A stretch of 64,000 nucleotides of DNA from NCBI GenBank assembly GCA_016783745.1, contig JADHVZ010000004.1, positions 3,544-67,543 on the forward strand, given 5' to 3'. Shown piece by piece: positions 5,474-43,830 of this stretch. The position numbers were made by a program, and so were the translations under genes. Every line of letters starts with the position of its first letter. Position 1 is the first letter of the stretch. The stretch comes from Candidatus Omnitrophota bacterium. GTDB taxonomy: Bacteria; Omnitrophota; Gorgyraeia; JAHIPI01. The notes beneath the pieces were generated by a model. The model was not told the origin of the DNA, made no database searches, and saw only the letters and a program-made list of their open reading frames with translations.

Positions 5474-6493
5474 ATGGGTTTTGAGATGCGGAGAAAAGTT
5501 TTCATAATAGCGGAAATAGGAAATCTTCATGACGGCTCATTAGACATGGCGAAGTCTTTCATCAGAGAAGTCGCCGGTTGCGGCGCGGATGCGATAAAGT
5601 TTCAAACACATATATTTAAAGCCGAAAGCCTGCCGGATGCCCCTAATCCTCCTTACTTCAAAAATGAAAGCAGAAAAGAGTATTTTGAAAGGACGGCTTT
5701 TAATCTGAAGCAGTGGGAAATGATCAAAAAGTTTACCGAGAATGAGTGCGGGCTGGAATTCATATCTTCTCCCTTTTCCCCGGAGGCCGTTGATTTGCTT
5801 GAGAAGCTGAGGGTCAGGACGTATAAAATCCCTTCGGGGGAGGTCACGAATGCGCCCCTGCTTTTAAAGATAGCCAAAACCGGTAAAAGGGTACTGCTTT
5901 CCAGCGGAATGAGTTCATGGGATGAGCTTGACCATGCTGTGAAAACATTGAAAAGAAACGGCTGCCCTAAGCCCGTAATATTACAGTGTACTTCCGAATA
6001 CCCCTGTCCGCCGCACAAGGTCGGGCTTAACGTCCTTCTGGAAATGAAGGAGAGGTATAAGCTGCCCGTAGGCTTGTCTGACCACACATTAGGCATAGCT
6101 TGTTCCATAGCTGCGGTCGCCCTTGGCGCGGAAGTAATAGAGAGGCACTTTACGCTCTCGAAGTCCATGTACGGAACGGATGCCGGGCATTCTTTGGAGC
6201 CCGGTGATCTCAAACTTCTTGTGAAAAACATAAGGGAGCTTGAAGCCGCCCTGTCCGCTAAAATAAATAAGGATATAACGGCTAAAGAAACGGCCGGTAT
6301 GAAGACGGTATTTGAAAAATCAATAGTCGCCGCTGCCCGCATAGAGAAAGGGACTGTCCTTAAAGAAGGGCATTTAGCTTATAAGAAGCCGGGCGACGGG
6401 ATACGGGCCGATAGATACAGGGAGATCATAGGAAAAACGGCGAAGACGGATATCGCCAGCGATACTAAAATAGACAGGAAGATGCTCAAGTGA
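5474..6493 (+). CDS. NeuB-family (non)ulosonic acid synthase, paralog 1 (N-acylneuraminate/legionaminate/pseudaminate synthase type), with C-terminal SAF domain
   Basis: 'KVFIIAEIGNLHDGSLDMAKSFIREVAGCGADAIKFQTH...LSSGMSSWDELDHAV...CTSEYPCPPHKVGLNVL...SDHTLG' match the NeuB TIM-barrel signature. The C-terminal 'SIVAAARIEKGTVLKEGHLAYKKPGDGI' is an SAF/antifreeze-like domain. Confidence 0.85.
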   Translation: MGFEMRRKVFIIAEIGNLHDGSLDMAKSFIREVAGCGADAIKFQTHIFKAESLPDAPNPPYFKNESRKEYFERTAFNLKQWEMIKKFTENECGLEFISSPFSPEAVDLLEKLRVRTYKIPSGEVTNAPLLLKIAKTGKRVLLSSGMSSWDELDHAVKTLKRNGCPKPVILQCTSEYPCPPHKVGLNVLLEMKERYKLPVGLSDHTLGIACSIAAVALGAEVIERHFTLSKSMYGTDAGHSLEPGDLKLLVKNIRELEAALSAKINKDITAKETAGMKTVFEKSIVAAARIEKGTVLKEGHLAYKKPGDGIRADRYREIIGKTAKTDIASDTKIDRKMLK

Positions 6494-7680
6494 AAAAGAA
6501 AAAAATAGGGCTTATTATAGGCAGCAGGGCGAATTACGCGAGTATAAAATCAGTTATAAGCCATATCTCAAAGCGCCGGGATTCGATGGAATTATTGATT
6601 TTTGTGGGTGCCTCCGCACTGCTGGAGAGGTACGGCCGGGTGGCGGATCTGGTAGAAGAGGATGGTTTTTCCATTACGGAGAAATTCTATATCCTGGTCG
6701 AAGGGGAAAATCCTCAGACCATGGCCATGTCAGTAGGATTGGGCATGATCGAGCTGGCCGGGCTGTTCATGAACCATAAACCGGATGTCGTGATAACAGT
6801 GGGCGACAGGTTTGAGACTATAGCTACGGCAGTCACAGCTTCTTATATGAACATCCACCTGGCTCATACGATGGGAGGCGAAATTTCCGGCACGATAGAT
6901 GAAAGCATAAGGCACGCTGTTACCAAGTTTTCCCATATTCATTTTCCGGCCAACAAAGAGGCAGCCGGAAGGATCATAAGAATGGGGGAGGACCCCGGCC
7001 ACGTTTTTGTTACGGGTTGTCCGAGGATAGACCTTGTAAAAGAGCTGATAGAGGAAAACAGGAACGGCGGCGGAATAGATAAAAATGAATTTTGGAAAAA
7101 ATACAAAGGCGTTGGAGAAGAATTCGACTTGGAGAAAGAGAGATTTTTACTGGTCTCCCAGCACCCCGTGACCACGGAATATGGTATGAACAGGGCCCGG
7201 ATGAGAGAGACGCTGATGGCCCTTTACAGTAAAAGGATGCCCACGATCTTACTCTGGCCGAATGCCGATGCCGGCTCGGATGAGATCTCCAAAGAGATAA
7301 GGACCTTCAGGGAGAAATATAAACCCGATGGTTGGCTGCACCTTTTTAAAAACCTTCCGATAGAAATATATACGAAATTGATGGATATGTGCGCCTGTAT
7401 GGTGGGGAATTCCAGCAGCGCCCTGAGAGAAGGCGCTATTGTCGGCGTGCCCGCAGTGAATATCGGGACGCGGCAGCAGGGAAGAAGCAGGGGAAAAAAT
7501 ATCGTGGACGCGGACTATGATAGAGAAAAAATCTTAGACGCGATGAATGGGCAGCTGAAAAATAGTAAGTTTGAACCCGATTATCTATATGGCGACGGCA
7601 AGGCCGGGGAGAAAATCGCGAAGATCCTGGCGGAAATAGATTTGAATAAAATCTATCTCCAAAAGAAGTTTATTGTTTAA
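6490..7680 (+). CDS. neuC: UDP-N-acetylglucosamine 2-epimerase (hydrolysing), NeuC/LegG-like
   Basis: 'IGLIIGSRANYASIKSV...DVVITVGDRFETIATAVTASYMNIHLAHTMGGEISGTIDESIRHAVTKFSHIHF...VTGCPRIDL' are typical of the NeuC/UDP-GlcNAc 2-epimerase family. Confidence 0.8.
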   Translation: MKKKKIGLIIGSRANYASIKSVISHISKRRDSMELLIFVGASALLERYGRVADLVEEDGFSITEKFYILVEGENPQTMAMSVGLGMIELAGLFMNHKPDVVITVGDRFETIATAVTASYMNIHLAHTMGGEISGTIDESIRHAVTKFSHIHFPANKEAAGRIIRMGEDPGHVFVTGCPRIDLVKELIEENRNGGGIDKNEFWKKYKGVGEEFDLEKERFLLVSQHPVTTEYGMNRARMRETLMALYSKRMPTILLWPNADAGSDEISKEIRTFREKYKPDGWLHLFKNLPIEIYTKLMDMCACMVGNSSSALREGAIVGVPAVNIGTRQQGRSRGKNIVDADYDREKILDAMNGQLKNSKFEPDYLYGDGKAGEKIAKILAEIDLNKIYLQKKFIV

Positions 7681-8725
7681 CGTACGGCTGTATAAAGGCG
7701 GCAGAATGTTTGTTTCTTATAAGCATATTTGTGATTATCAATCCGTTGATATAGGCAGGCTCAGGGGCAAGGGGAGTTATAAAACCTTGATGGAAAAAAG
7801 GGCCTACTTTTTAAAGATAGTCGGAGACAGGGATCAAAAAGTGAGAGGCGAATTTTTACAGGAGAGGCTTTGCCCTTTATGCGACGCGGACGATCATCGA
7901 TGTATTTTGGAAAAGGACGGCTTAAAAATAGTCAAATGCAGTAAGTGTGAAATGATCTATGTGAACCCGGTTTTAAGCACTGCCGCCCTGGAAAAGATAT
8001 ATAAACATGAAGATTATTCCGAAATAATGGAAAAGCTTCAGGGGGAATCCCATCAGTATAGAAAATCACGTTTCGGAAAAGAGCGGGTGGAAACGGTAAA
8101 AAGACTGCGGGATGATAGGCTGGATTTTAAAAAATGGCTGGATATAGGATGCAGTACCGGCTTTGTCTTAGAGGCCGCCAAGGAAGAGGGGTGGGATGCG
8201 GTAGGCGTAGAATTAAACCCCTATGCCGTACGGTTTGCCCGGGGGAGAGGCATAAAGGTCATCGACAGGGATTATCTGGGGATACGATTCGGCGAGTCCG
8301 AATTTTCGGAAATAACGATATTTGATGTTTTGGAGCATCTGCCGAATCCGAGTGATGTCCTGAGGAAGGCTTTTAAAGAATTAACCCAATACGGAGGCGT
8401 GTATATTTACGTACCGAACTGGGAATCCGCGAGTAGGATTTTAATGGGGGACGACGCCCATTTCATATGGCCTTCTCACCATTTGGCTTATTTTACCCCA
8501 TTTACCGTGACTAAGATGCTGGAAAGCATAGGCTTTGAAGTGATCCGCGTGGAGACTGAGGGCCTTGATATTTTTGATTATATCTGGTTTTTGAAAGATA
8601 GAGATAATGAAAAACCGGTTTCTTATTTGGAGGAAATAGCCGACAAGCTTCAATTTTTTATCAACGCGGGGCTTTACGGCAAGAATCTGAGGGTATACGC
8701 TAAAAAGACCGGTGGAAAAGGCTGA
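7673..8725 (+). CDS. class I SAM-dependent methyltransferase with N-terminal CxxC...CxxC zinc-ribbon (start ambiguous: TTG 7673, ATG 7706 or ATG 7790)
   Basis: 'CPLCDAD...CSKCEM' zinc ribbon. 'LDIGCSTGFVLEAAKEEGWDAVGVELNP' is motif I, and 'IFDVLEHLPNP' is motif II/post-I. Confidence 0.75.
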   Translation: MFNVRLYKGGRMFVSYKHICDYQSVDIGRLRGKGSYKTLMEKRAYFLKIVGDRDQKVRGEFLQERLCPLCDADDHRCILEKDGLKIVKCSKCEMIYVNPVLSTAALEKIYKHEDYSEIMEKLQGESHQYRKSRFGKERVETVKRLRDDRLDFKKWLDIGCSTGFVLEAAKEEGWDAVGVELNPYAVRFARGRGIKVIDRDYLGIRFGESEFSEITIFDVLEHLPNPSDVLRKAFKELTQYGGVYIYVPNWESASRILMGDDAHFIWPSHHLAYFTPFTVTKMLESIGFEVIRVETEGLDIFDYIWFLKDRDNEKPVSYLEEIADKLQFFINAGLYGKNLRVYAKKTGGKG

Positions 8726-9452
8726 TATGGAAAAGAACGCCAAGCGGGAAGTCTTAGCTGTTATTCCGGCGCGCGGCGGATCAAAGGGGATCCCGGGAAA
8801 GAATCTTACGCCTTTATGCGGAAGGCCGTTGATCCAATACACTATCGATGCCGCAAGAAGCAGCGCGTTTATCAGCCGCATTATCGTATCGAGTGATGAC
8901 GATGAGATAATCAGCCATTGCCAAAGGCAGAATATAGAGGCCCCCTTCAAGAGGCCCGCGGAATACGGCCGGGATGACGCGCCGATGATAGACGTGATCA
9001 GGCACGCGCTGTCATATTTAAAAAAAAATCAGGATTATAGCCCCGATTTCATAGTATTGCTCCAGCCGACTTCTCCTTTAAGGCAATCGAGGCATATTGA
9101 TGAGGCGCTGGAGGCTCTTATGCGCTCCGATGCCGATTCCGTGGTAAGCATCACGGAAGTGCCTCATAATTTCAATCCATACTCATTGATGAAGCTTGAA
9201 AACGGGCTTTTGAAACCGTTTCTTGATTATGACGAAAAAAACAACCAGAGGCAGAAAAAACCAAAATTTTACGCGCGAAACGGCGCCGCGATATACGCCT
9301 TTACCTATAGGTGCATAGCCGAAAAAGAGAGCATCTACGGGGATAAGATCCTGCCGTATTTTATGGGCAGGGACGAGTCTGTGGACATAGATTCGATCTT
9401 TGACCTGAAGTCGGCGGAAATATTATTGAATAAGAGAGAACGGATGCCATGA
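8712..9452 (+). CDS. acylneuraminate cytidylyltransferase-family CMP-sugar synthetase (NeuA-like), paralog 1
   Basis: 'VLAVIPARGGSKGIPGKNLTPLCGRPLIQYTID...LLQPTSPLR' is the CTP_transf_3 signature. Confidence 0.85.
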   Translation: MEKADMEKNAKREVLAVIPARGGSKGIPGKNLTPLCGRPLIQYTIDAARSSAFISRIIVSSDDDEIISHCQRQNIEAPFKRPAEYGRDDAPMIDVIRHALSYLKKNQDYSPDFIVLLQPTSPLRQSRHIDEALEALMRSDADSVVSITEVPHNFNPYSLMKLENGLLKPFLDYDEKNNQRQKKPKFYARNGAAIYAFTYRCIAEKESIYGDKILPYFMGRDESVDIDSIFDLKSAEILLNKRERMP

Positions 9453-10165
9453 TCTCTTTTTTAAAACCGTGGGTAAGGAATAAGGCGCAAAAAAAACTGG
9501 CCTCCCTTCCGGACGACAGAGGGATAAAGATGCTATTGCGCCTTGAGGCGCGGCTGTCTTCTTTGACGCTTGGGACGATAAAATTGGCGGAACGCTCAAG
9601 AGGGGGGATCCATCCCAAGCATTGGATCACGGATTTTGTGGGCTTCTTCCTGGACAACATCAATGCCTCCGATACGGTTCTTGAGATAGGATGCGCATAC
9701 GGGCACGTTGCCTCAAGGATAGCGGAGAAAGCCAAACATGTTACTGCCATTGACATCCGCCGGGACGCTATTGAAAAGGCCGGGCAGCAGTTCAACCGCA
9801 GCAATATCTCGTTTATCAGCGCTGACTTTTTTGATTTTACGGATGGAAGTAAATTTGATGTAGTGGTCATGTCCAATGTCCTGGAGCACATAGCGGACCG
9901 CGGGAGATTTTTGGAGAAAGCGGCCGTCTTAGGCGGGAAATTGCTTATACGCGTGCCGGCCTTTGACAGGGACTGGACGGTGCCTTATAAAAAGAAACTG
10001 GGCTTGGAATGGCGTTTAAACGATGGCCATGAAGTGGAGTATACGGAAGGCATGCTGAGAGATGAGCTTGGCCGCGCGGGCCTGTCCGTGAAATATCTAT
10101 GCTGTAAATGGGGTAACTATTGCTGCATAGCCGAGAAAAAAAGAGGCGATAACGGGCGATCATGA
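9449..10165 (+). CDS. class I SAM-dependent methyltransferase
   Basis: 'VLEIGCAYGHVASRIAEKAKHVTAIDIRRDAIEKA...FDVVVMSNVLEHIAD'. Confidence 0.75.
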   Translation: MISFLKPWVRNKAQKKLASLPDDRGIKMLLRLEARLSSLTLGTIKLAERSRGGIHPKHWITDFVGFFLDNINASDTVLEIGCAYGHVASRIAEKAKHVTAIDIRRDAIEKAGQQFNRSNISFISADFFDFTDGSKFDVVVMSNVLEHIADRGRFLEKAAVLGGKLLIRVPAFDRDWTVPYKKKLGLEWRLNDGHEVEYTEGMLRDELGRAGLSVKYLCCKWGNYCCIAEKKRGDNGRS

Positions 10166-11733
10166 ATATTATTTTTACAAGTTCGGGGATAGGCCTGAAG
10201 GTTTTTTATTCTATACTAAGAAGGATCAAAGATCCTCTGAAGGTCGAGAAGGCAGGGTTTTATGTAGCCCATTCGATGTACTATAGCCGTTTTGTCAAAG
10301 AACATCCCGATGTCGAATCTGACTATCAGGTAGTCAAAGAGTGGGAGATCCTGGAAAGGTCAAGAAAACTAAAGCCTGATCCTGAAAAAATCAGCGCCTA
10401 TGAAAAGGCCATCGGAAACCCTACCCTTTGGGAGCCTCTTGTATGCGATCGCAGGGTCTATCTGGGGAGGCGTTGTAAAGAGAAACAGGACTATCGCCCG
10501 TCGTTTACGCATGAGGGGATGCTGGGCATCCTTCAGGCGGCGCTGGAGGAGATCGAGGGCTTATTGGATAGAGTAAAGCCCGATCTTGTTTTTTCCCTGG
10601 ACCCTACTACGTTCGGGGATTATATCATGTATCTCTTTTGCAGGGCAAGGAACATACCTATGTTTTTTTTAAGGACAACAAAGATCAAGAACTACGTTGA
10701 ATTCAACGACGGCATGTTCGGCTGTTCCTCGCATATCTATAGGATGTTTCAGGAATATGAAAGAAATAACGCCTATGACAGGTGGGTAAAGGAAGCCGAA
10801 GCGTATCTGGAGGAAACTAGAAATAAGGATTCAAGGTATGAGGGGATGGTGCTTGTTTCACCCGAGAGAAAAAAAGAAGACCCGCCGGCCGGTATCGCGA
10901 GATCTCTCATAAGGGGATTGATGAGTGAGGCGGATTATCTCCTGAAATACAAGAGAGACAGCCACATCCCGGGTATCTTTATACCGTTCGCGTATCAAAA
11001 GTTTATTCTGCCTTTTAAGGCAAGGCTTCAACACCTGCGGTATTCGAGGTATTACGTGACAGAGAACAGGCTTGATTCCTTGAATTTCGCCTTTTATCCT
11101 CTCCAGTCTGAGCCGGAGATCTCGTCCTTGATCTGGGGTAAATCCTATATGAACCAGATAGAGACGATCAGAAATATTGCCCGAAGCCTTCCGGTTGGGA
11201 TGAAGCTTTTAGTAAAGGAACACCCCCGCGCCGTGGGGTATCGATCCTTCGGATATTACAAAAAGATTTTGCAAATACCTAATACCATGCTTATTTCTCC
11301 GTATGTAAAGGCGAGGCCTGTGATCAAGAGGGCTAAAGCCATTATTTCCATAGCTACTTTTGTGGCATTTGAGGCTGTAATACACAGGGTACCTTCGATA
11401 ATGCTGGGTGGGCCGCGGCCGTTTTCTATTTTACCGGATTCGATGATGCGTTACGTCCATAGCATGAATGACCTTGCCGCGGAGATCAACGGACTTTTAA
11501 GAGATTATGAATATAAAGAAAGGCCCCTCATTCATTATATCGCGGCTACCATGCGCGGGTCAGTGCCCGTTAATTACTTTACGACCATGTTAAAGAAGAA
11601 AAGCCGCTACGTTGGTTCAGCCAGCTGTGAATTTGAGGAGGAGATCGAGAAGTTGTCCCATTACACGATTCAAAGGGTCAAAGAAGTCATGGAAGCCAGA
11701 GAAGTTAAAGAAGCCAGAGAAGTGCTGTCATGA
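10162..11733 (+). CDS. KpsC/KpsS/LpsZ-like capsule-polysaccharide biosynthesis protein (GT-B-like, candidate ulosonic-acid transferase), paralog 1
   Basis: 523 aa. 'FAFYPLQSEPEISS...LLVKEHPRAVGY...AKAIISIATFVAFEAVIHRVPSIMLGG' gives an HP motif plus a GT-B C-terminal-type 'ST..EA....P' loop, as in beta-Kdo transferases and sialyltransferase-like GT-B enzymes. Motif-level only. Confidence 0.4.
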   Translation: MNIIFTSSGIGLKVFYSILRRIKDPLKVEKAGFYVAHSMYYSRFVKEHPDVESDYQVVKEWEILERSRKLKPDPEKISAYEKAIGNPTLWEPLVCDRRVYLGRRCKEKQDYRPSFTHEGMLGILQAALEEIEGLLDRVKPDLVFSLDPTTFGDYIMYLFCRARNIPMFFLRTTKIKNYVEFNDGMFGCSSHIYRMFQEYERNNAYDRWVKEAEAYLEETRNKDSRYEGMVLVSPERKKEDPPAGIARSLIRGLMSEADYLLKYKRDSHIPGIFIPFAYQKFILPFKARLQHLRYSRYYVTENRLDSLNFAFYPLQSEPEISSLIWGKSYMNQIETIRNIARSLPVGMKLLVKEHPRAVGYRSFGYYKKILQIPNTMLISPYVKARPVIKRAKAIISIATFVAFEAVIHRVPSIMLGGPRPFSILPDSMMRYVHSMNDLAAEINGLLRDYEYKERPLIHYIAATMRGSVPVNYFTTMLKKKSRYVGSASCEFEEEIEKLSHYTIQRVKEVMEAREVKEAREVLS

Positions 11734-12707
11734 AGAAGATCCTTATAACAGGCGGATGCGGGTTTATCGGAACGAATCTCATTGCCCGGCTGCTGAAGGA
11801 AAAAGACAGGCTGTTTATACGCGTTCTGGATAATCTGTCTGTTGGGACAGAAAAGGCGTTTGAGGACGTTTGCTCAGCTGATCCCGCTCCGGATGCGGAG
11901 CTTATCATAGGAGATATCCGCGATATTAAGGCCTGCATAAGGTGCTGTGAGGGGATTGATACTCTCGTGCATCTGGCCGCGGATACAGGAGTTGCCCCTT
12001 CCGTCGAAAATCCCCGCGTGGATATGGAAGTCAATGTCATCGGCACAGTCAATCTTCTAGAGGCGATGCGTGAGCGCGGAGTCGAAAGATTTATTTTCGC
12101 TTCAAGCGGAGCTCCGCTGGGTGAGGCCAAACTGCCGATCTGTGAGGAAAGCGCGCCAAAGCCGGTATCCCCGTATGGCGCAAGCAAACTGGCAGGGGAA
12201 GGATATTGTTCCGCGTATTATAGGACGTACGGCATAAAAACATTTACTTTGCGGTTCAGCAATGTGTACGGGCCGCGGTCTTTTCATAAGCAAAGTGTTG
12301 TCGCCAGGTTTATCAGGAGCGCGCTGGAAGGCAAGGCCATTGAGGTTTACGGCGATGGCAATCAGACGAGGGATTTCATACATGTTGATGACCTTGTTCA
12401 AGCAATAGTCCTGGCCGCCGGCGCAGAGGCCGGAGGAGAGGTTTTTCAGATAGCGACAAGCCGGGAAACAACTATAAGCGAGATAGCGTCACGTATTGAA
12501 AAGATAATCGAAGCGAAGGTAGGCATGACCACGGATATCGCTTATACCGGTTCCAGGCGCGGCGACGTAAGAAGAAATTTCTCAGATATTTCTAAGGCGA
12601 AGAAAATATTGGGGTTTGCCCCGTGTGTGGATTTGGCAGAGGGGCTGGAACGCACAGTCAACTGGTTTATCAGTGAGGGTGCCCCTATAGGAGAAAAAAG
12701 TGAGTAG
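11730..12707 (+). CDS. NAD-dependent sugar epimerase/dehydratase (extended SDR, GalE-like)
   Basis: 'KILITGGCGFIGTNL' Rossmann motif and 'YGASKLAGE' YxxxK catalytic dyad. Confidence 0.8.
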   Translation: MKKILITGGCGFIGTNLIARLLKEKDRLFIRVLDNLSVGTEKAFEDVCSADPAPDAELIIGDIRDIKACIRCCEGIDTLVHLAADTGVAPSVENPRVDMEVNVIGTVNLLEAMRERGVERFIFASSGAPLGEAKLPICEESAPKPVSPYGASKLAGEGYCSAYYRTYGIKTFTLRFSNVYGPRSFHKQSVVARFIRSALEGKAIEVYGDGNQTRDFIHVDDLVQAIVLAAGAEAGGEVFQIATSRETTISEIASRIEKIIEAKVGMTTDIAYTGSRRGDVRRNFSDISKAKKILGFAPCVDLAEGLERTVNWFISEGAPIGEKSE

Positions 12708-15086: not shown

Positions 15087-15087
15087 A

Positions 15088-16855: not shown

Positions 16856-17595
16856 AGGCATTATGCGTGATCCCGGCCAGAGGCGGCTCTAAAGGCATAC
16901 CGGGTAAGAATATCAGGCTGGTGGACGGCAAGCCGCTGATCGGGTTTGTCATCGAAGCTGTCGTGCGATCGGGTGTTTTTGATAAGGCTATTGTATCAAC
17001 GGACTCGGCAGAGATAGCGGATATCGTCAATAGATATTATCCCGAAATCGATGTACCTTTTATCAGGCCCGCAGAACTTGCCGGGGATGATGTGCCTGTT
17101 ACGGCAGTGATAAAACACGCTGTTGATTTTTATGAAAAAGAAGATTTTGGACTCGTATTTTCAGTACAGTCGACAAACCCATTTACGAGGCCTGAGACAT
17201 TGACCGGCATGCTGGATATCATGAATGGGGATAAGTGTGATTCTATAGTGACCATTGCAAAAATACTTCATTTGCATCCGTTTCGTTCTTACCGGTACGA
17301 CTCAGAGACGATGCGGATCTCCCCGCTTACGCAGTACACAAAGGAGTTATTTCTGCAGAAGCAGGACAGGCCGGACGCTTACGGCTTGACCGGCGGAGTA
17401 CTTGGCCGCAGATCTCGATTGATCAAAGAGTGGGCCGGCAAAGGACTTGCCCTCGGAGAAGATCAACGGGGATATGTGGTCCAAGAGGAAGAGGCATTTG
17501 ACCTGGATACGCCTTTTGAGATGAACCTCTTTGAGAGCTTGATTTCCGCCAGAAGCGCAAAGGCAGCCATGGCAATGGAGGAAGGCCGACGATGA
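16852..17595 (+). CDS. NeuA-like cytidylyltransferase, paralog 2
   Basis: 'ALCVIPARGGSKGIPGKNIRLVDGKPLIGFVIEAV'. Confidence 0.85.
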   Translation: MKALCVIPARGGSKGIPGKNIRLVDGKPLIGFVIEAVVRSGVFDKAIVSTDSAEIADIVNRYYPEIDVPFIRPAELAGDDVPVTAVIKHAVDFYEKEDFGLVFSVQSTNPFTRPETLTGMLDIMNGDKCDSIVTIAKILHLHPFRSYRYDSETMRISPLTQYTKELFLQKQDRPDAYGLTGGVLGRRSRLIKEWAGKGLALGEDQRGYVVQEEEAFDLDTPFEMNLFESLISARSAKAAMAMEEGRR

Positions 17596-18626: not shown

Positions 18627-18653
18627 CCGATCGAATTATTTTTTATGTGAGGT

Positions 18654-19664: not shown

Positions 19665-19678
19665 ATTGTAAGTGATAT

Positions 19679-20953: not shown

Positions 20954-22089
20954 AAAGAACAATAAATTGGTGAATGATCTGGAATTGCTCAAGATCATGT
21001 TGGGAGATATGCAGAATGCCCCGGGACTTTTCCAGCCCACAAGCTTCTGGAGATACCATGAAAGATATCATGTTCCGTGGCTTAAGAGTTCCGATTTGAA
21101 TAATTTCAGGAGCATAGCCGGCGGCGGAAACAGTAGTTTCGGAGCCAATTTTTACGGGCACTATCCCTTTGATCCTGTGACGATCGAAAAAATGCCTCAC
21201 TCCGTACGGGCGATGGGGAATATCATTAATAGGTTTTCGCGGCATATAAAGCCCCTCATGTTTTTTAACCCGGAGATCGTCTCTCTACTGTACCGCCGGC
21301 TGCGAAAGACACAGAAGATGCTTGAAAATCTTGCGTATTATTCTGCCGGATTGATCGACGGAGACGGGACCTTGGGCAGGATCGAAGATTCGGGATTGGG
21401 AAATCCGACCGATCTGATAATTATCGACGGGAAAAAATATACCAATGTGTTTTTAAAGTATTTTTCGCAATACGTTTACGCGAAGAAGTTTATCGATTTT
21501 AACGGCATAAAAAGCATTTTTGGAGATCGGCTCCGGATACGGCGGACAGGCAGAGATGTTATTAAAGGCACACCCGCATCTTAATATTTGCGTTATTGAT
21601 ATTCCTCCGCAGTTGTATGTTACCGAGCAATACCTAAGCGCCTGTTTCAAAGGACAAGTGTGCGGCTATAGAGCCTTGAGGGGGATGAATAAGATAGGGC
21701 GTGATATTTTTGATAAATACAGCATTGTAGCCCTGGCGCCGTGGCAGTTAGACTATATTGACGGTGTATCCTTCGATTTATTCTGGAATTCCGCGTCTTT
21801 TCAGGAGATGGAGCCCCCGGTAGTGGAAAATTACGCAAAATATATACAAAAGATGGTTTCAAAATGGCTTTATCTGCGAAACCAGCCGGATGGAAGTTCT
21901 ATAGTGGAGGGCCGGAAGAAAAACGTGGAGGCGCAAACCCGCATGGAGCACTATGTGAAGTTTTTCTCTGATTTTGAGCTTGTTGACCGAAGTCCTTCAA
22001 AAGTGATTCCTAATATTGCCTCAGGCGAAAGATATGACAACATGATTTTCAGGCGGAAGGCGCCTAAGGGCGGGGAGCGCGAAACATGA
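20940..22089 (+). CDS. putative sugar O-methyltransferase (class I SAM MTase) interrupted by an apparent +1 frameshift near 21511-21522
   Basis: ORF-track pieces 20940-21584 and 21520-22089 lie in adjacent frames. The second opens right after an in-frame TAA at 21508 and begins with MTase motif I 'FLEIGSGYGGQAEMLLKAHP'. The first encodes an N-terminal domain ('FQPTSFWRYHERYHVPW...NFYGHYPF') of the kind seen in sialic-acid-cluster O-methyltransferases. The junction sits in A5/T5 homopolymers (ggcataaaaagcatttttgg). Confidence 0.55.
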
Positions 22090-22583
22090 TCGATAAGGAT
22101 CAGTTAGTTTTAAGGTTGAAAAAAATCAAGCTTGTAGCCCTGGATGTGGATGGCGTGCTTACGGACGGGCGGGTTTATTTAGATGCCGACGGCCGGGAAA
22201 CACGGGCCTTTAATTTCAAGGATATCATGGGCATATCCCGCCTAAAAAAAAGAGGCGTCAAGGTAGCGTTAATATCGGGAGAAAAAAACGCTGTTATTGA
22301 CCGGTTCTGCCGGAAGCTCGGCATAGAAAAAAACTATCAGAACTGCAGGGAAAAGGATAAGGCTATTGATGAGCTCACGGATTATTACAAGCTGAAGCCA
22401 GAGGATATATGTTTCATAGGTGATGATATTAATGATATCCCCGTTTTTAAGAAGGTAGGCCTGGCCGTAGGCGTGTCCAACGGCTGGGAAGGTATAATGG
22501 GCAGCGCGCATATAGTTACGAAAAATAAAGGGGGAAACGGCGCTGTCAGGGAGATTTGCGAGTTAATCATAGCTAACATATGA
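22086..22583 (+). CDS. HAD-superfamily KdsC/YrbI-type phosphatase (3-deoxy-ulosonate 8/9-phosphate phosphatase)
   Basis: 'LVALDVDGVLTDGRVYLDADGRE...FIGDDINDIPVFKKVGLAVGVSNG' carries HAD motif I DxDGVLTDG and motif IV GDDxND at KdsC-like size (165 aa). Confidence 0.8.
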   Translation: MIDKDQLVLRLKKIKLVALDVDGVLTDGRVYLDADGRETRAFNFKDIMGISRLKKRGVKVALISGEKNAVIDRFCRKLGIEKNYQNCREKDKAIDELTDYYKLKPEDICFIGDDINDIPVFKKVGLAVGVSNGWEGIMGSAHIVTKNKGGNGAVREICELIIANI

Positions 22584-22593
22584 GGATCGCGTT

Positions 22594-23382
22594 ATGAAAG
22601 TTTTGTGTGTGATTCCTGCCCGCGGCGGCTCGAAGACTGTGCCAAAAAAGAACCTGGTGGAAATAGGCGGAAAATCGCTGCTTTATTACGCGGCGGAATG
22701 CGTGAAAAACTCGAAGGTTATTGAGCGGACAGTGCTTTCAACTGATTCCGGCGAGATAGCCGCGCAGGCCCGGTCTTTGGGGCTGGAAGTCCCGTTTATG
22801 CGGTCGGCGGAATTGGCCACGGACGAGACTACGGATTGGCCCGTTTTCAACCATTGCATGGAATGGCTGAAAGATAATGATAGATATGTTCCTGATATTG
22901 TTGTCCATTTGCGGGTGACTTCACCTTTTGCTTTTAAAATGCACGGTGGACCGACAGGCGATTTTTCACGTAATTGGATATGCGTCAAAAGAGAAGAGAT
23001 CATAGATGGGGTTGTAAATATGCTGGCTGAGAGGCCGGAACTAGATTCTGTGAGGACTGTAGAACTTGTCCGGAGTACGCCTTATAAAATGTGGCGTATG
23101 GAGGGAGGAGTAATAAAGCCTGTTATCCGGACAAGCGAAAAAGAGATCTATAATCAGCCCAGGCAAAAGATACCGCCGGCCTACCTCCAGAACGGGTATG
23201 TGGACGCGGCGCGTTATTCAACTATTATGCGAAAGAAATCAATGAACGGCGAAACAATAGGCGGCTACGTGCTCGATTGCGATTATTTTGTGGACATTGA
23301 CGGATATGCCGATATTGAACTGGGAGATCTGATCTACCGCCAGCTTATGGAGGAGGAGAGCGTAGATGAGTATAAAAGATAA
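22594..23382 (+). CDS. NeuA-like cytidylyltransferase, paralog 3
   Basis: 'VLCVIPARGGSKTVPKKNLVEIGGKSLLYYAAE'. Confidence 0.8.
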   Translation: MKVLCVIPARGGSKTVPKKNLVEIGGKSLLYYAAECVKNSKVIERTVLSTDSGEIAAQARSLGLEVPFMRSAELATDETTDWPVFNHCMEWLKDNDRYVPDIVVHLRVTSPFAFKMHGGPTGDFSRNWICVKREEIIDGVVNMLAERPELDSVRTVELVRSTPYKMWRMEGGVIKPVIRTSEKEIYNQPRQKIPPAYLQNGYVDAARYSTIMRKKSMNGETIGGYVLDCDYFVDIDGYADIELGDLIYRQLMEEESVDEYKR

Positions 23383-24193
23383 GTTTGATATAAAAGGCAG
23401 GGTCGCGGTTATAACGGGCGGCGCGGGGCTATTGGGCAAAGAATTCGCCAGGACATTGCTTGAGTACGGAGGAAAGGTCGTTATGGCGGATATCGCGCGC
23501 GATAGAGGCGCGGCCGCGCTTAAAGAGATCGGGCAAGGATCTAAAGGCGACATTGTCTATGAGTATGTCGATGTCAGCTCCAAAGATTCGGTTGAGAAGA
23601 TGGCGCAGTCCGTTAAAAAGCGTTTCGGAAAGGTGGACATATTGATCAATTGCGCGGCGCTCGATCCTAAATTCGAAGCCGGCGATATGGAAAAACACGG
23701 CTATGCATTCGAAGATTATCCGTTGGAGTCATGGGAAAGAGCGGTATCCGTCAATCTAACGGGCGCCTTTTTATGCTGTCAGGTGATCGGCCGGATCATG
23801 ATATCTCAGGAGAAAGGCGTTATTGTGAACGTCGCCTCTGAGATCGGTATGATCGCTCCTGACAATAGGATCTATATTAAAAAGGCGGAACCGGAAAAGA
23901 AAAGATTTAAACCGATCGACTATCCTGTCACAAAAGCGGCGCTTATACATCTTTCGAGGTATCTCGCGTCTTATTGGGGAGATAAGAATATTCGAGTCAA
24001 TACGCTGACACCGGCAACTGTTTATACAGATCAGGATGATGAGTTGGTGAAAAACATCTCTTACAGGGCGATCCTCGGCAGGATGTCCGATAAAAACGAA
24101 TTCTGCGGGGCGCTGATATTCTTGGTCTCTGACGCCTCAAGTTATATGACGGGCGCGAACCTCGTAGTGGACGGCGGCAGGACGGCTTGGTAG
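23366..24193 (+). CDS. short-chain dehydrogenase/reductase (classical SDR)
   Basis: 'VAVITGGAGLLGKEFARTLLEYGGKVVMAD' is TGxxxGxG; 'NCAALDP' and 'YPVTKAAL' give the YxxxK dyad. Confidence 0.8.
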   Translation: MSIKDKFDIKGRVAVITGGAGLLGKEFARTLLEYGGKVVMADIARDRGAAALKEIGQGSKGDIVYEYVDVSSKDSVEKMAQSVKKRFGKVDILINCAALDPKFEAGDMEKHGYAFEDYPLESWERAVSVNLTGAFLCCQVIGRIMISQEKGVIVNVASEIGMIAPDNRIYIKKAEPEKKRFKPIDYPVTKAALIHLSRYLASYWGDKNIRVNTLTPATVYTDQDDELVKNISYRAILGRMSDKNEFCGALIFLVSDASSYMTGANLVVDGGRTAW

Positions 24194-24219
24194 GGATTAC
24201 GTAGGGAAATGCCGGGTTA

Positions 24220-24350
24220 GGTTTACGGTTTTCGGTTCACGGTTTACGGAAAATCCAATGGGATTTAAAAAACCGTACACCGTAAACCGTACACCGTAAA
24301 CCGTACACCGTAAACCGTACACCGTAAACCGTACACCGTAAACCGTAAGT
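24220..24350. repeat. heptad-periodic repeat block: 30-bp element GGTTTACGGTTTTCGGTTCACGGTTTACGG (24220-24249), small hairpin AAATCCaatgGGATTT (24252-24267), then 14-bp tandem repeat CCGTACACCGTAAA x about 5.5 (24272-24350)
   Basis: Read directly from the sequence. The 30-mer is the reverse complement of the tandem-repeat consensus (CCGTAAACC...), so the two can pair. It ends 12 nt before ATG 24363. Confidence 0.85.
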
Positions 24351-24362
24351 GAGATATTCAAA

Positions 24363-25286
24363 ATGAACAACATAACAATCGGCATCATGCAGGGTCGGCT
24401 GATGCCTCCGGTCAACGGTCAGCTGCAGGCATTTCCGGGAAAGGGGTGGGAGAAGGAATTTTCCCGGGCCGGCCTGTGCGGGTTGGACACGATCGAATTC
24501 ATTTTTGACACGGATGAAGAATATAATCCGCTTCACGATGACGAAAAAATCGAACGGATCCGGGAATTATCGAGGGATCATAGGATCAAGGTATCCTCCG
24601 TATGCGCCGATTACTTTATGAGGAGAGGCTTCCTGCGGGTGGCTGACGAGGAGCGTAAGAAAAATGTGGAAATGCTCCGGAAGCTGACTTTAAGATGCGA
24701 TAAAATCGGTATCCGGTATATCGTAATACCGTTTGTGGATGAATCCGAAATAAAAACGGCTGAAGAGCTGTATATAGTACGGGACGCATTGATCGAAGCG
24801 CTTGACGGCACAAAAGGGTGCGATGTCTATTATGCGCTTGAGATGTCGCTTCCGGCCGAGAGAATCGTCCCGTTTCTGAAGGAGGCCGGCCACCCTCGGT
24901 TGAAGATCAATTATGATACGGGAAACTCAACGGCCCTCGGTTATGATCTAGCCTCCGAAATAGAGCAGCTGGCTCCGTGGATCGTGGATGTGCATATTAA
25001 GGACAGGAAGGTGGGCGGAGGAAGTTGTATCCTCGGAGAAGGCGATACTGACTTTGACGGTGCGTTTAGGGCGTTGGCCGGGATCGGCTTCCGCGGCCCG
25101 TATATCATCCAGGCGCAGCGCACCGGAAACGAGGCCAAACTCGCAAAGCGCTATCTGGGGTTCGTGAAAAATATGATCTCTCGCTCGCGCAGAGCATACA
25201 GCTCTCATTCTGTCTCCAAGGGGAGTTTCCCCTTAACCGTAAACCGTGAACCGAAAACCGATAACCGAAAACCGAGAACCGAATAA
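24363..25286 (+). CDS. sugar phosphate isomerase/epimerase (xylose-isomerase-like TIM barrel)
   Basis: 'GLDTIEFIFDTDEE...YIVIPFVDESE...DVHIKDRK' with metal-binding E/D/H spacing is typical of the AP-endonuclease-2/xylose-isomerase-like TIM-barrel family. The C-terminal 20 aa are encoded by the downstream heptad repeat. Confidence 0.6.
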   Translation: MNNITIGIMQGRLMPPVNGQLQAFPGKGWEKEFSRAGLCGLDTIEFIFDTDEEYNPLHDDEKIERIRELSRDHRIKVSSVCADYFMRRGFLRVADEERKKNVEMLRKLTLRCDKIGIRYIVIPFVDESEIKTAEELYIVRDALIEALDGTKGCDVYYALEMSLPAERIVPFLKEAGHPRLKINYDTGNSTALGYDLASEIEQLAPWIVDVHIKDRKVGGGSCILGEGDTDFDGAFRALAGIGFRGPYIIQAQRTGNEAKLAKRYLGFVKNMISRSRRAYSSHSVSKGSFPLTVNREPKTDNRKPRTE

Positions 25287-25288
25287 GG
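25220..25288. repeat. hairpin GGGGAgttTCCCC (25220-25232) followed by heptad repeat CCGTAAACCGTGAACCGAAAACCGATAACCGAAAACCGAGAACCGAA, an inverted copy of the 24220-24249 element
   Basis: 25238-25261 equals the reverse complement of 24226-24249 over 24/24 nt (28/30 over the full element). Confidence 0.8.
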
Positions 25289-25293
25289 ATAAT

Positions 25294-26331
25294 ATGAAGA
25301 TACTAATGGCAGGGCTGGGGTCTATCGGCCAGCGGCACCTGCGGAATATACTGTCTATTTTAGGGGAAGATGCTGAGATAAGCGCATACAGGGTCCGTAA
25401 GGGGCAGGAGGTGTTTACCGATAAGCTGTCAGTTTTAAAAGGCGCCCGGCTGGAGGAAGAATATAAATTCAGGTCTTTTGATTCTCTGGACGAGGCGCTT
25501 GCCGGTTCTCCTGAAGCGGTGTTTATTTGCAATCCGACCAGTATGCATATACCGGTCGCGCTGGCCGCCGCGAAAAAGGGCTGCCACCTCTTTATCGAAA
25601 AACCGCTTTCGCATGATCTCGAGGGAATTGAAGAGCTTGAGTCTATTGTCAGGGAGAAGGGCCTGACGGCGCTGGTGGGTTTCCAGCTGCGTTTCCACCC
25701 GTGCTATTTGAAATTAAAAGAGCTGATAGCGGAGGAAAGGGCCGGCAATATTTTATCGGCCTTCATAGAGGTAGGCGAATTTCTCCCCGCATGGCATAAA
25801 TGGGAGGACTACCGAAGGATGTATGCCTCACGAAAAGACCTGGGCGGAGGCGTTGTACTGACTCAGATACACGAAATCGACTACGCGATGGACATTTTCG
25901 GAGCGCCGCAGCGCATATGCGCTGCCGGCGGACATTTGAGCTCCCTCGATATCGACGTCGAAGATACCGTTGACGCGCTCATGGAATTTTCGCACAAAGG
26001 GAGGAGGCTGCCGGTCAGTTTTCATATGGATTATCTGCAGAGGCCCCCAAGGCGGGGATGCAGGATAATCGGGGAAGACGCGATTATCGCAATGGATTTG
26101 GTTGCGCAGAATGTAGTTATAATCAATAGTGACGGCAAAGAGGAGAGGTTCGAATACGGTGACTTTTCGAGAAATCAGCTATTTATAGATGAAATAAAAC
26201 ATTTCTTCGCATGTATCCGGGCCGAGGAGAAGCCGCTGGTCGACATATCAACGGCGCTTCAAGGGATGAAGACAGCCATGGCCGTCAAGGAATCGATGAA
26301 TAAGAGAAAAAAGGTATTATTGAAATTTTAA
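25294..26331 (+). CDS. Gfo/Idh/MocA-family NAD(P)-dependent sugar oxidoreductase (start reassigned to ATG 25294; the ORF-track N-terminus is translation of the heptad repeat)
   Basis: 'MKILMAGLGSIGQRHLRN' N-terminal Rossmann, then '...CHLFIEKPLSHDLEGIEEL', the EKP motif of the Gfo/Idh/MocA family. Confidence 0.75.
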   Translation: MKILMAGLGSIGQRHLRNILSILGEDAEISAYRVRKGQEVFTDKLSVLKGARLEEEYKFRSFDSLDEALAGSPEAVFICNPTSMHIPVALAAAKKGCHLFIEKPLSHDLEGIEELESIVREKGLTALVGFQLRFHPCYLKLKELIAEERAGNILSAFIEVGEFLPAWHKWEDYRRMYASRKDLGGGVVLTQIHEIDYAMDIFGAPQRICAAGGHLSSLDIDVEDTVDALMEFSHKGRRLPVSFHMDYLQRPPRRGCRIIGEDAIIAMDLVAQNVVIINSDGKEERFEYGDFSRNQLFIDEIKHFFACIRAEEKPLVDISTALQGMKTAMAVKESMNKRKKVLLKF

Positions 26332-26344
26332 AAAAGGAGGCATT

Positions 26345-27214
26345 ATGAAGAGGGAAGTGAAGCTCGGCGATACATGGGTGGGGAGCGGACATCCATGTTT
26401 CTTTACCGCAGAGATAGGGATCAATCACAACGGCGATATAGCGATAGCAAAGAAACTTATTGATGTGGCAATACTTACGGGATGCAATGCCGTAAAGTTT
26501 CAGAAAAGGACGATCGAGGTCGTGTATTCGCCGGAAGATCTTGACCGTCCGAGGGAAAATCCGTTCGGGCCGACCAACAGGGATTTAAAGAGAAACCTCG
26601 AATTCGGAAAGAAAGAATATGAACAGATCGATAGGTATTGCAAAGAAAAAGGTATTATGTGGTATGCCTCCTGCTGGGATGAGCAATCGATCGACTTCAT
26701 GGAGGAGTTTGATCCGCCTTGTTATAAAATAGCTTCAGCTTCGCTTACCGATGATGACCTTCTTCGTCATACCCGCAAAACCGGCAAGCCGATAATACTA
26801 TCTACGGGCATGTCGTCTATGGGTCAGATCTACCACGCCGTAGAAGTGCTTGGAGAAGAAGGCCTAGTCATCATGCATTGCACTAGCACGTATCCGTCAA
26901 AACCCGATGAGTTAAACCTGAGGATGATAGAGACGCTTCATAGAGAGTTTAAGTGTCCTATCGGTTACTCCGGACACGAAGTCGGCCTGATGACTACTTT
27001 GGCCGCAAAGGTATTAGGGGCATCTATGCTTGAGCGCCATATAACGTTGGACCGCGCGATGTGGGGAAGCGACCAGGCGGCCTCGGTAGAATCTCACGGA
27101 ATGATGAGGTTGATCAAAGACATCCGTTCCGTGGAATCGGCGCACGGTGACGGCGAGAAGATCATTTATGAGAGCGAGATGCCTATTATGAAGAAGCTGC
27201 GAAGAAAAGGATGA
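26345..27214 (+). CDS. NeuB-family synthase paralog 4, short form lacking the C-terminal SAF domain
   Basis: 'CFFTAEIGINHNGDIAIAKKLIDVAILTGCNAVKFQKRT...ILSTGMSSMGQIYHAV...CTSTYPSKPDELNL...SGHEVG'. Only 289 aa, ending about 50 aa before where the SAF domain would start. RBS AAAAGGAGG precedes it. Confidence 0.75.
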   Translation: MKREVKLGDTWVGSGHPCFFTAEIGINHNGDIAIAKKLIDVAILTGCNAVKFQKRTIEVVYSPEDLDRPRENPFGPTNRDLKRNLEFGKKEYEQIDRYCKEKGIMWYASCWDEQSIDFMEEFDPPCYKIASASLTDDDLLRHTRKTGKPIILSTGMSSMGQIYHAVEVLGEEGLVIMHCTSTYPSKPDELNLRMIETLHREFKCPIGYSGHEVGLMTTLAAKVLGASMLERHITLDRAMWGSDQAASVESHGMMRLIKDIRSVESAHGDGEKIIYESEMPIMKKLRRKG

Positions 27215-30804: not shown

Positions 30805-30813
30805 GAAGAGGCA

Positions 30814-34744: not shown

Positions 34745-34748
34745 ATAA

Positions 34749-40115: not shown

Positions 40116-40133
40116 ACGGTCAAGGATAGAAGA

Positions 40134-43819: not shown

Positions 43820-43830
43820 AGAGGCCTGAA

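Follow-up and report, generated by a model that had tools for sequence, protein, structure and literature searches.

Four candidate modules for the synthesis, activation and transfer of ulosonic acids in a surface-glycan locus of a Candidatus Omnitrophota bacterium

Our question was whether a gene array in which four synthases of the NeuB family follow each other closely encodes four different ulosonic acids, or whether some of its genes are copies, relics or the result of a faulty assembly. The array lies on a metagenomic contig from an uncultured Candidatus Omnitrophota bacterium, of which metagenomes are the only record (JADHVZ010000004.1 of assembly GCA_016783745.1, positions 3,544 to 67,543 of the forward strand). 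The whole 64-kb stretch that was analysed is called the window here, and coordinates refer to it. The answer we favor, at a probability of roughly 0.7, is that four modules each make, activate and transfer a different ulosonic acid, and that positions 5474-28764 are the ulosonic-acid part of a surface-glycan locus, put at more than 60 kb because a one-strand array spans the whole window. In the proposed scheme, a NeuB-family enzyme would condense phosphoenolpyruvate (PEP) with a module-specific sugar to give a 2-keto-3-deoxy acid, a dedicated enzyme of the CTP_transf_3 family would convert this acid to its cytidine monophosphate (CMP) sugar, and a GT-B-type transferase with features of CMP-sugar users would add the acid to an acceptor. 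Methyltransferases, enzymes of the short-chain dehydrogenase/reductase (SDR), GFO and triosephosphate isomerase (TIM) barrel types and radical S-adenosylmethionine (SAM) enzymes would tailor the products. The substrates, the order of the steps, the making and display of three or four distinct CMP-sugars and their destination in one glycan are what we infer from the genes described below.

Positions 5474-28764, a stretch of 23 kb, hold four NeuB-family synthases, one NeuC and five CTP_transf_3 cytidylyltransferase (CT) domains, all on the same strand and tightly coupled. A scan of all six frames of the window with hidden Markov models gave a total of exactly four NeuB and five CT domains, and no sixth CT domain was found there. 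The genes that carry the argument are the following, where contigs and loci used for comparison are given L numbers and GT stands for glycosyltransferase.

5474-6493, + strand: NeuB1, NeuB-family synthase with a SAF domain (Pfam NeuB, E 2e-76).
6490-7680, + strand: NeuC, hydrolysing uridine diphosphate N-acetylglucosamine (UDP-GlcNAc) 2-epimerase (TIGR03568, 362.6 bits, above the cut-off of 235.9).
8712-9452, + strand: CT1, CMP-sialic-acid-synthetase-like (CTP_transf_3, E 4e-27).
10162-11733, + strand: putative CMP-ulosonic acid transferase of GT-B type, 523 aa, resembling KpsC and WbbB, which are retaining transferases for beta-linked Kdo (3-deoxy-D-manno-octulosonate).
12700-14094, + strand: GT2 fused to a degenerate CT-like domain (Glycos_transf_2, E 1e-31; CTP_transf_3, E 9e-11).
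15088-16101, + strand: NeuB2, divergent, with a remodelled sugar pocket (Pfam NeuB, E 1e-52).
16091-16855, + strand: CT3, KdsB-like, partner of NeuB2 (CTP_transf_3, E 6e-19; nearest NCBIfam families KdsB, E 1e-13).
16852-17595, + strand: CT4, PseF/NeuA-like, probable partner of NeuB3 (CTP_transf_3, E 6e-26).
18654-19664, + strand: NeuB3, NeuB-family synthase with a SAF domain (Pfam NeuB, E 1e-70).
19679-20953, + strand: rare GT-B-fold protein, 424 aa, putative transferase for the NeuB3 product (AlphaFold and Foldseek).
22594-23382, + strand: CT5, partner of NeuB4 (CTP_transf_3, E 3e-16; same cassette in L089 and L091).
26345-27214, + strand: NeuB4, NeuB-family synthase without a SAF domain (Pfam NeuB, E 2e-77).
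27211-28764, + strand: GT-B/TagF-like glycosyltransferase, 517 aa, distantly related to Tannerella transferases for derivatives of pseudaminic (Pse) and legionaminic (Leg) acids (NF046086, E 2.5e-13).

A preliminary description of this DNA had placed four NeuB synthases at 5474, 15088, 18654 and 26345, together with NeuC, in an operon-like array. The PF03102 and NeuC equivalog matches agree with those coordinates, and the layout bears out the rest. Neighboring genes between 5474 and 28764 are spaced at -17 to +27 bp, the overlaps measuring 4-17 bp. There are three exceptions, which are a 169-bp gap (24193-24363), a frameshift at about 21520-21584, and a 41-bp overlap at 25246 that vanishes if the gene begins at the later start chosen in other assemblies. 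Such overlapping or nearly touching frames on one strand argue for co-expression. A scan for promoters and terminators gave no enrichment over shuffled sequence and was uninformative. The window as a whole is one + strand array of about 55 genes, nearly every one of which falls in the category of sugar or glycan metabolism, with an even GC content of about 0.46 and a GC skew that is positive throughout.

The simplest ways in which such an array could mislead us are that the paralogues are recent duplicates of one specificity, or that clusters of several organisms were joined by the assembler. The only reason to consider the latter is that the contigs are metagenomic, with about 8x coverage. 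At least four sequencing runs and two assemblers yielded contigs with the same proteins in the same order; the A-B junction (modules A to D are defined below) is reproduced in contigs of four different runs, the B-C-D junction and the stretch downstream of D in further contigs, and one window protein is identical to a protein of an NCBI 'Candidatus Omnitrophica bacterium' on an 83-kb contig of a metagenome-assembled genome (MAG). Given that the junctions recur in independent contigs, the array is not an assembly chimera, and the uniform GC content and GC skew along the window stand against a chimera as well.

Recent duplication fares no better. The four synthases score 179-260 bits against PF03102 (cut-off 22.1; E 1e-52 to 2e-77), their pairwise identity is only 29-36%, and each is nearer to proteins of other organisms than to its neighbors in the array, with 44-94% identity to proteins of other, mostly unrelated contigs. 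Relatives encoded elsewhere are 56% identical for NeuB1 (in a Fuerstiella MAG), 60-63% for NeuB2, 44% for NeuB3 and 94% for NeuB4, the last with further relatives at about 70% across several phyla. In a neighbor-joining tree of 174 NeuB domains they fall into four separate clades, with bootstrap values of 99 for NeuB1, 96 for NeuB2 and 98 for NeuB4; for NeuB3 the value is 23, which is weak. The paralogues thus look old and different rather than nearly identical. Taken together, recent duplication and chimeric assembly are ruled out by the divergence and by the reproduced junctions, and we consider them extremely improbable.

The synthases do not look like pseudo-enzymes either. Residues were mapped by alignment to NeuB of Neisseria meningitidis, with its sequence rebuilt from PDB alignment printouts. 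Glu25, Lys53, Gln55, Lys129, His215, Glu234, His236 and Asp247 are kept in all four, and these eight core positions are also conserved across the NeuB2 and NeuB4 families; they include the metal ligands His215 and His236 and residues for PEP. The sugar-contact positions carry family-specific changes in the NeuB2 and NeuB4 clades. NeuB2 relatives share an invariant Gln184 and an acidic residue, Asp or Glu, at position 110, and the window NeuB2 carries an insert of five residues behind His215; Gly214 is invariant throughout the NeuB4 family, and 102 of its 121 members have Ser134. The Arg314 position, a contribution of the C-terminal antifreeze-like SAF domain, holds Arg in NeuB2 and NeuB3 and Lys in the SAF-bearing NeuB1, and NeuB4 is without the SAF domain. 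Judged by their sequences, the four are thus neither recent duplicates nor pseudo-enzymes.

The activating enzymes give a more mixed picture. The five CT domains score 42-96 bits against PF02348 (cut-off 22.6) and are 21-34% identical to each other. Using an alignment to the N. meningitidis CMP-N-acetylneuraminic acid (CMP-Neu5Ac) synthetase and its numbering, we find the key residues Arg12 and Lys21 of the P-loop, Asp209 and Asp211 kept in CT1, CT4 and CT5. CT3 has the KdsB-like variant R, K, T, D, in which Thr replaces Asp209. The GT2-fused domain (about 13417-14094) reads M, L, R and Q at these four positions. Its homologues in L093, L094 and L016 are degenerate at the same four, so this domain is conserved but probably not an active cytidylyltransferase. 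That it is degenerate in distant homologues too points to a retained non-catalytic role rather than decay. The array would then have four working activators for four synthases. It had been described as holding five to six CMP-transferases, with an activation enzyme for each acid. Five domains are there, a sixth is not, and only four look catalytically competent; each NeuB can be paired with an intact CT of its own, but the number of CT genes overstates the number of sugars, since the cassette around NeuB2 alone holds three CT domains for one NeuB. In three further loci (L133, L142 and L144) relatives of the GT2::CT fusion have three to four CTP_transf_3 domains around them, along with an aminotransferase and an ABC exporter, and NeuB is absent within 10 kb.

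The third component is the transferase, and here the suggestion of GT-B candidates at 10162, 19679 and 27211 is supported by family profiles, by hhalign comparisons and by AlphaFold and Foldseek. The protein of 10162-11733 has 5,599 relatives at E up to 0.001 in a representative library, with a Pfam Capsule_synth match in 32 of 33 aligned sequences, and its family profile matches KpsC (E 1e-10) and WbbB (E 2e-5), to whose modified GT-B fold it is closest. An HP motif (H354, P355) is invariant, and a QSEPE sequence at 315-319, for which the family consensus is (H/Q)xEPE, lies about 35 residues upstream of it. KpsC, KpsS and WbbB are retaining beta-Kdo transferases with a QxxxD nucleophile, a catalytic His in the HP motif and a Glu base (PMC10148158). 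The spacing of QSEPE to HP is close to our estimate for the KpsC QxxxD nucleophile, with Glu and not Asp in its place. Unlike these enzymes (GT107 and GT99; PMC10148158, PMC9587256), the window protein has a single module and not two, is about 200 residues longer than one KpsC module, has Glu for the Asp nucleophile, and adjoins a NeuB/NeuC module instead of a Kdo pathway. Because of this last difference its donor is probably a nine-carbon acid.

The protein of 19679-20953 is much rarer. Pfam and NCBIfam give no match, the best hit to a solved structure in a profile search is only E 0.03, and of 5.8 billion proteins just 19 are homologous to it. Its AlphaFold model (pLDDT, the predicted local confidence, 85.6) has a GT-B fold, for which Foldseek returns GT-B glycosyltransferases and 2-epimerases at E of about 1e-11, and L089 has a homologue alongside a NeuB3-like gene. 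The 19679 and 27211 families are homologous to each other (hhalign 99.2%), and the latter in turn is homologous to the 10162 family through the C-terminal domain (96.9% with the family alignment); the single 10162 sequence against the 27211 family was uninformative, at 11% probability. The 27211-28764 protein scores 49.9 bits against NF046086, the BFO_1060 family, which is below the cut-off of 200 and covers residues 155-287 only. Its profile matches TarL (E 1e-4), an HP motif lies at 313, homologues are found, weakly, in 15 of the 80 NeuB loci introduced below, and a genome scan with it as single query gave no confirmed relative. The Tannerella transferases for Pse and Leg derivatives were defined by gene knock-out, with BFO_1060 as a homologue (PMC5420450). 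Like Tannerella forsythia Tanf_01245, TFUB4_00887 and BFO_1060 (PMC5420450), the 27211 protein is encoded directly downstream of a CMP-acid module, has an HP motif and is a predicted GT-B/TagB-like enzyme; unlike them it matches the BFO_1060 family over the central 130 residues only and is a distant relative at best. Of the earlier statement that the array has three KpsC/S-like GT-B proteins, the three GT-B proteins remain, and the likeness to KpsC and KpsS is directly supported for 10162 only.

Going by these sequence features, the array can be divided into four modules, A (5474-11733), B (11730-18626), C (18654-22089) and D (22086-28764), in which each synthase can be paired with an intact cytidylyltransferase and a GT-B-type transferase. 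The acids themselves can be assigned only indirectly, because no NeuB reaches an equivalog cut-off and there is no supported grouping with a characterised synthase. NeuB1 to NeuB4 score 358, 216, 284 and 247 bits against the Neu5Ac synthase model TIGR03569, all below its cut-off of 400, and lower still against the pseudaminic acid synthase model TIGR03586. Against the PseF equivalog TIGR03584 (cut-off 205.7), CT1 is best with 148 bits, the others reach 81-115 and CT3 has no match. The tree contained four sequences from the PDB as anchors (N. meningitidis NeuB, Campylobacter jejuni PseI, Bacillus subtilis SpsE and Leptospira 6ncs) and was made without LegI, the synthase for 2-keto-3-deoxynononic acid (KDN) 9-phosphate and Escherichia coli NeuB. 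None of the window synthases groups with any of these four anchors with support in the 174-sequence tree; NeuB1 is sister to N. meningitidis NeuB at 15% bootstrap only. We tried and rejected both routes to the products, the equivalog models with all four NeuBs and all CTs below the cut-offs, and the phylogeny with only four anchors and deep nodes at bootstrap 0-23. The labels Neu, Leg, Pse and KDN of the preliminary description are thus not assignable by sequence, as no NeuB groups with a characterised Neu5Ac, Pse or Leg synthase with support. What can be said about products comes from gene context, module by module.

Module A contains, besides the genes given above:

7673-8725, + strand: SAM-dependent methyltransferase (Methyltransf_23, E 3e-19).
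9449-10165, + strand: second SAM-dependent methyltransferase (several methyltransferase Pfam families, E about 1e-14 to 1e-16).

A NeuC homologue is present in 30 of 35 loci of the NeuB1 clade, and a DegT-type aminotransferase lies within 10 kb in 6 of these 35 compared to 33 of 45 other NeuB loci (Fisher p = 5e-7). The best solved-structure match of CT1 is the CMP-Neu5Ac synthetase 6ifd (E 1e-40). Because the clade has NeuC and seldom an aminotransferase, and because CT1 is nearest to CMP-Neu5Ac synthetases, the context of module A suggests a Neu5Ac-type three-gene pattern and not the pattern of Leg or Pse. The module would most likely lead from UDP-GlcNAc to a Neu5Ac-type sialic acid, possibly methylated. 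Like the NeuCBA pathway of N. meningitidis and E. coli K1, it has a hydrolysing 2-epimerase, a synthase and a CMP-synthetase, with no aminotransferase nearby. It differs in that NeuB1 is only about 30-35% identical to the N. meningitidis enzyme, falls below the equivalog cut-off and has Lys at the Arg314 position, and in that two methyltransferases and a KpsC-like transferase stand in place of a polysialyltransferase or Lst-type transferase.

Module B combines a synthase with radical SAM enzymes:

11730-12707, + strand: SDR-type nucleoside diphosphate (NDP) sugar 4,6-dehydratase/epimerase (Pfam Epimerase, E 3e-60).
14091-15086, + strand: radical SAM/SPASM enzyme (Radical_SAM and SPASM).
17592-18626, + strand: second radical SAM/SPASM enzyme (Radical_SAM and SPASM).

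The gene order of this cassette recurs at 52-70% identity on two unrelated contigs, L093 and L094, and rearranged versions lie on several metagenome contigs. The SDR resembles dTDP-glucose dehydratase (dTDP being deoxythymidine diphosphate) and LegB, under both cut-offs, and has a 57% identical equivalent in the same position in L094. The first radical SAM enzyme weakly matches spiro-SPASM and two radical SAM families that handle nucleotides, MoaA and BlsE, with orthologues 62-63% identical in the same position in L093 and L094, and the second has a 52% identical orthologue in the same position in L094; in the L093 copy the SDR and the second radical SAM gene were not seen. About 50 full-length relatives of the GT2::CT fusion exist in Joint Genome Institute (JGI) metagenomes. 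For NeuB2, the ATG at 15088 fits homologues of 337-344 aa better than the upstream TTG at 15028. NeuB::CT fusions make up 44 of the 120 best NeuB2 relatives, all 44 with a CT3-type domain, and are seen in L108 and L111 as well. Since they are fused in so many relatives (a Rosetta-stone link), NeuB2 and CT3 appear to work as a unit. No CT::radical-SAM fusion was found among the loci fetched.

We read module B as a mobile, uncharacterised cassette whose product would probably be modified by radical chemistry. A bolder idea is that it makes an undescribed class of CMP-activated ulosonic acid, the skeleton or stereochemistry of which is altered by radical SAM chemistry at the nucleotide-sugar level; examples may be a higher-carbon, C-branched, deoxygenated or sulfonated acid. 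We think this is conceivable though rather doubtful. Our literature search found no paper linking radical SAM/SPASM enzymes with nonulosonic acids (NulOs). If it were true, the conserved dead CT domain of the GT2 fusion would be a CMP-sugar-binding module, and together with the other three modules the acidic-sugar repertoire would be among the most diverse in a single locus.

Several observations lie close to this cassette. A sulfoquinovose-synthase-like gene adjoins cassette B genes in eight of the comparison loci (L094, L111, L112, L115, L124, L125, L128 and L145) and may supply the NeuB2 pathway. The window has its own UDP-sulfoquinovose-synthase-like gene (36583-38061; 429 bits, cut-off 575), an ATP sulfurylase (53783-54916) and a sulfatase-like gene (56546-57715), which together point to a sulfonated or sulfated sugar. 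There are seven radical SAM genes in the locus, four of SPASM type (14091, 17592, 39186 and 40134) and three of B12-binding type (31827, 33293 and 49005), and the SPASM-type genes have weak NCBIfam matches to 'spiro-SPASM' proteins, the N-terminal part of which resembles CT3. A further sugar-tailoring block lies at 38058-47078. Besides a PseC-like aminotransferase (350 bits, cut-off 423) it has an epimerase and two of the radical SAM/SPASM genes, followed in our list by a fusion of ATP-grasp and methyltransferase, a hexapeptide acetyltransferase and an amidotransferase of Asn-synthase-like type, and it could supply diamino-sugar precursors to NeuB2 or NeuB3.

Module D is a cassette conserved across phyla. 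Its other members are:

22086-22583, + strand: KdsC-family phosphatase of the haloacid dehalogenase (HAD) type (TIGR01670, 148.6 bits, above the cut-off of 107).
23366-24193, + strand: short-chain dehydrogenase (adh_short_C2, E 5e-46; in the cassette of L089 at 94% and of L091 at 46%).
24363-25286, + strand: xylose-isomerase-like TIM barrel of the sugar-phosphate isomerase/epimerase type (AP_endonuc_2, E 2e-25; conserved in L089 and L091).
25246-26331, + strand: Gfo/Idh/MocA oxidoreductase (GFO_IDH_MocA, E 2e-16; conserved in L089 and L091).

On an Opitutales contig, a NeuB4 homologue with 69% identity is surrounded by all six enzyme families of the module, and the same holds in a 94% identical relative. 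The phosphatase scores 118 bits against the KDN-9-P phosphatase equivalog, below the cut-off of 180, the TIM barrel weakly resembles L-ribulose-5-P 3-epimerase, and the best solved structure for NeuB4 is the SAF-less Leptospira 6ncs. In module D a synthase thus forms a conserved unit with a KdsC-type phosphatase and a CMP-synthetase, and because a SAF-less synthase together with such a phosphatase fits a phosphorylated route, NeuB4 is probably of the type that uses a phosphorylated substrate. A sugar-phosphate and PEP would be joined to an acid-phosphate, which would then be dephosphorylated as in the synthesis of KDN or of Neu5Ac in animals, and the three redox and isomerase enzymes would prepare or modify the substrate. 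A phosphorylated KDN route, with a NeuB-family synthase that uses a sugar-6-phosphate, is documented for Bacteroides thetaiotaomicron (BT1714 and BT1713) and Prymnesium parvum (PMC6200933), and a phosphorylated route was proposed for Leptospira (PMC3438082). Like the KDN pathway, module D has the NeuB-family synthase, the KdsC-type HAD phosphatase and the CMP-synthetase; unlike it, it adds the SDR, the TIM-barrel isomerase/epimerase and the GFO oxidoreductase as conserved members.

A close relative of the locus, L089 (JGI 3300033153), was compared over 18654-36521. From 26345 on, it is 86-94% identical to the window; the SDR at 23366 reaches 94%, and the phosphatase, CT5, TIM and GFO genes 67-77%. 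Upstream of these its module differs, with carbamoyltransferase, CT3-like, NeuB3-like (40%), deacetylase, U2-like (34%) and sulfotransferase-like genes. The difference indicates that cassettes are exchanged at a hot spot of recombination near 22 kb.

Module C would make a third acid with CT4, NeuB3, the new GT-B protein and an O-methyltransferase:

20940-22089, + strand: NanM-type sugar O-methyltransferase in two open reading frames, 20940-21584 and 21520-22089 (TIGR04371).

The nearest relatives of NeuB3 (37-44% identity) are NeuBs beside GT2::CT cassettes, and CT4 is likely the activator for NeuB3, because a CT4-like gene directly adjoins a NeuB3-like gene in four other contigs (L093, L115, L119 and L125). 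The two methyltransferase frames match profile positions 3-153 and 155-273 of TIGR04371, and the split is also called in two independent assemblies of the same community, L095 and L096. The frameshift could mark a real pseudogene or a slippery site. This brings up the possibility that part of the array, above all module C and the pseudo-CT, is decaying or redundant, that these genes are relics of cassette swapping and that fewer than four sugars are made. The frameshift in independent assemblies, the degenerate CT domain of the GT2 fusion and the replacement of a module in L089 would all fit such decay. We nevertheless find it distinctly improbable, as the four NeuBs, four CTs and three transferases are full length with key residues intact, and the degenerate CT domain is likewise degenerate in the distant homologues examined.

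There is still room for doubt about four modules with four acids, and several of the results count against it. The frameshifted methyltransferase means that module C could be decaying. The pairing of CT4 with NeuB3 is not exclusive, since in L094 CT4 belongs to cassette B as well. In NeuB1, Lys takes the place of Arg314, a change that reportedly weakens the Neisseria enzyme, and no NeuB reaches an equivalog cut-off or joins a characterised synthase with support. Related cassettes have up to four CT domains with zero or one NeuB within reach, so that CT3-like enzymes and other CTP_transf_3 proteins of these cassettes may activate products that do not come from NeuB.

A different concern is where the acids would go. 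The preliminary description had one glycan carrying all of them, and this part does not follow from the genes, as the modules could feed different glycoconjugates. A tentative possibility, yet one to be taken seriously, is that the modules are real and distinct but serve lipopolysaccharide (LPS), capsule and an S-layer or adhesin glycoprotein separately, or are used alternately, and that some of the products may be Kdo-like eight-carbon or higher-carbon acids. This differs from the four-module reading only in the destination of the sugars and the length of their chain, and the two are not mutually exclusive. Each module has a transferase of its own, the locus also encodes a Wzz-like protein, an ABC exporter, a PMT_2-type GT-C, GT2 and GT4 enzymes and a giant Ig-like protein, and in a close relative one module has been exchanged and the others kept, all of which would suit separate destinations. 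Regarding chain length, CT3 is nearer to KdsB, the activator of Kdo, than to NeuA or PseF, and the transferase of module A resembles Kdo transferases. On the other side, the single strand with its overlapping or nearly touching frames argues for co-expression, and all four synthases belong to the NeuB family and not to the KdsA family.

How unusual a locus with four modules is becomes apparent when comparing it to 80 genome loci centered on a NeuB1-like gene, with 10 kb on each side. One NeuB is present in 68 of them, two in 11, three in a single Bacteriovorax MAG and four in none, and the maximum of CT domains is three. The window counted in the same way, around NeuB2 or NeuB3, has three NeuBs and five CT domains, and its four NeuBs extend over 21.7 kb. 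The 22 metagenome loci with a GT2::CT fusion have zero to two NeuBs and one to four CT domains. That bacteria usually carry one such set is hence true for the majority, while two sets are common and three occur. The sample of 80 is small and biased to NeuB1-like genes, and it puts the frequency of loci with four NeuBs only roughly, at about 1% or less; a large published phylogeny of NulO synthases holds no copy-number data.

Known systems with more than one synthase put this in perspective. C. jejuni has three NeuB paralogues, for Pse, Leg and Neu5Ac, each with its own CMP-synthetase and with tailoring at the level of the CMP-sugar. They are spread over different loci, PseI and LegI in the flagellar locus and NeuB1 with the lipooligosaccharide (LOS), and serve different glycoconjugates through Maf or Cst transferases. 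The window is alike in having several divergent NeuB paralogues, each paired with a CMP-synthetase, and many tailoring enzymes; unlike in C. jejuni, its NeuBs stand in one array and none groups with C. jejuni PseI with support. Recent CMP-sugar profiling counted at least 12 derivatives per strain, and it also found that tailoring acts on the CMP-sugar and that Magnetospirillum has higher-carbon acids. Another such system is the cluster of Leptospira interrogans, with two synthases, two synthetases and several NulO species detected biochemically (PMC3438082). As in the window, one cluster holds several distinct synthases and synthetases, and Leptospira also has aminotransferases; the window has four synthases, a predicted four working synthetases, the pseudo-CT domain and the radical-SAM-linked cassette B, which is absent from the Leptospira cluster as published, and its host belongs to another phylum, Omnitrophota. 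One Leptospira synthase has a C-terminal domain 'homologous to endonucleases', which its authors read as a phosphatase (PMC3438082), and this domain and the TIM barrel of module D (24363) may be of the same kind. With clusters of two and three synthases already documented, the density of four modules is rare but extends known biology rather than breaking it.

Some neighboring genes add to the picture of the locus. The gene at 99-3104, directly upstream of the array, has a product of 1001 aa in which Ig-like, cadherin-like, LVIVD and LamG domains are found. This protein also matches PF12218, the N-terminal extension of phage endosialidases, though weakly and under the cut-off (E 8.5e-4), and may be a glycosylated surface protein or a glycan-binding protein. 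A pyruvate kinase (55116-56561) lies inside the glycan locus and adjoins the ATP sulfurylase; in L082 (18573-21005) a single open reading frame matches both enzymes. It might supply PEP for the four PEP-consuming synthases. At 57726-59553 a formyltransferase and a polysaccharide deacetylase are side by side, a pair recently connected, in Ca. Kuenenia, with legionaminic-type acids that have a free amine or an N-formyl group (preprint 10.64898/2026.04.20.719630).

The locus overturns no current view, and its value lies elsewhere. Sialic-acid-like sugars influence the recognition of bacterial surfaces by phages, predators and hosts, and they are hard to synthesise chemically, which makes new biosynthetic enzymes useful. 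Both the NeuB2/CT3 unit with its radical SAM enzymes and the six-gene NeuB4 unit, about 70% identical across phyla, are widespread and uncharacterised, and they are offered as enzyme targets, as are three candidate transferases for CMP-activated acids, an enzyme class with few known members, and the conserved pseudo-cytidylyltransferase domain has a role that is open to testing. For the organism itself, the locus is a natural example of cassette-wise pathway assembly in a phylum about which little is known and whose bacteria are very small and possibly dependent on hosts.

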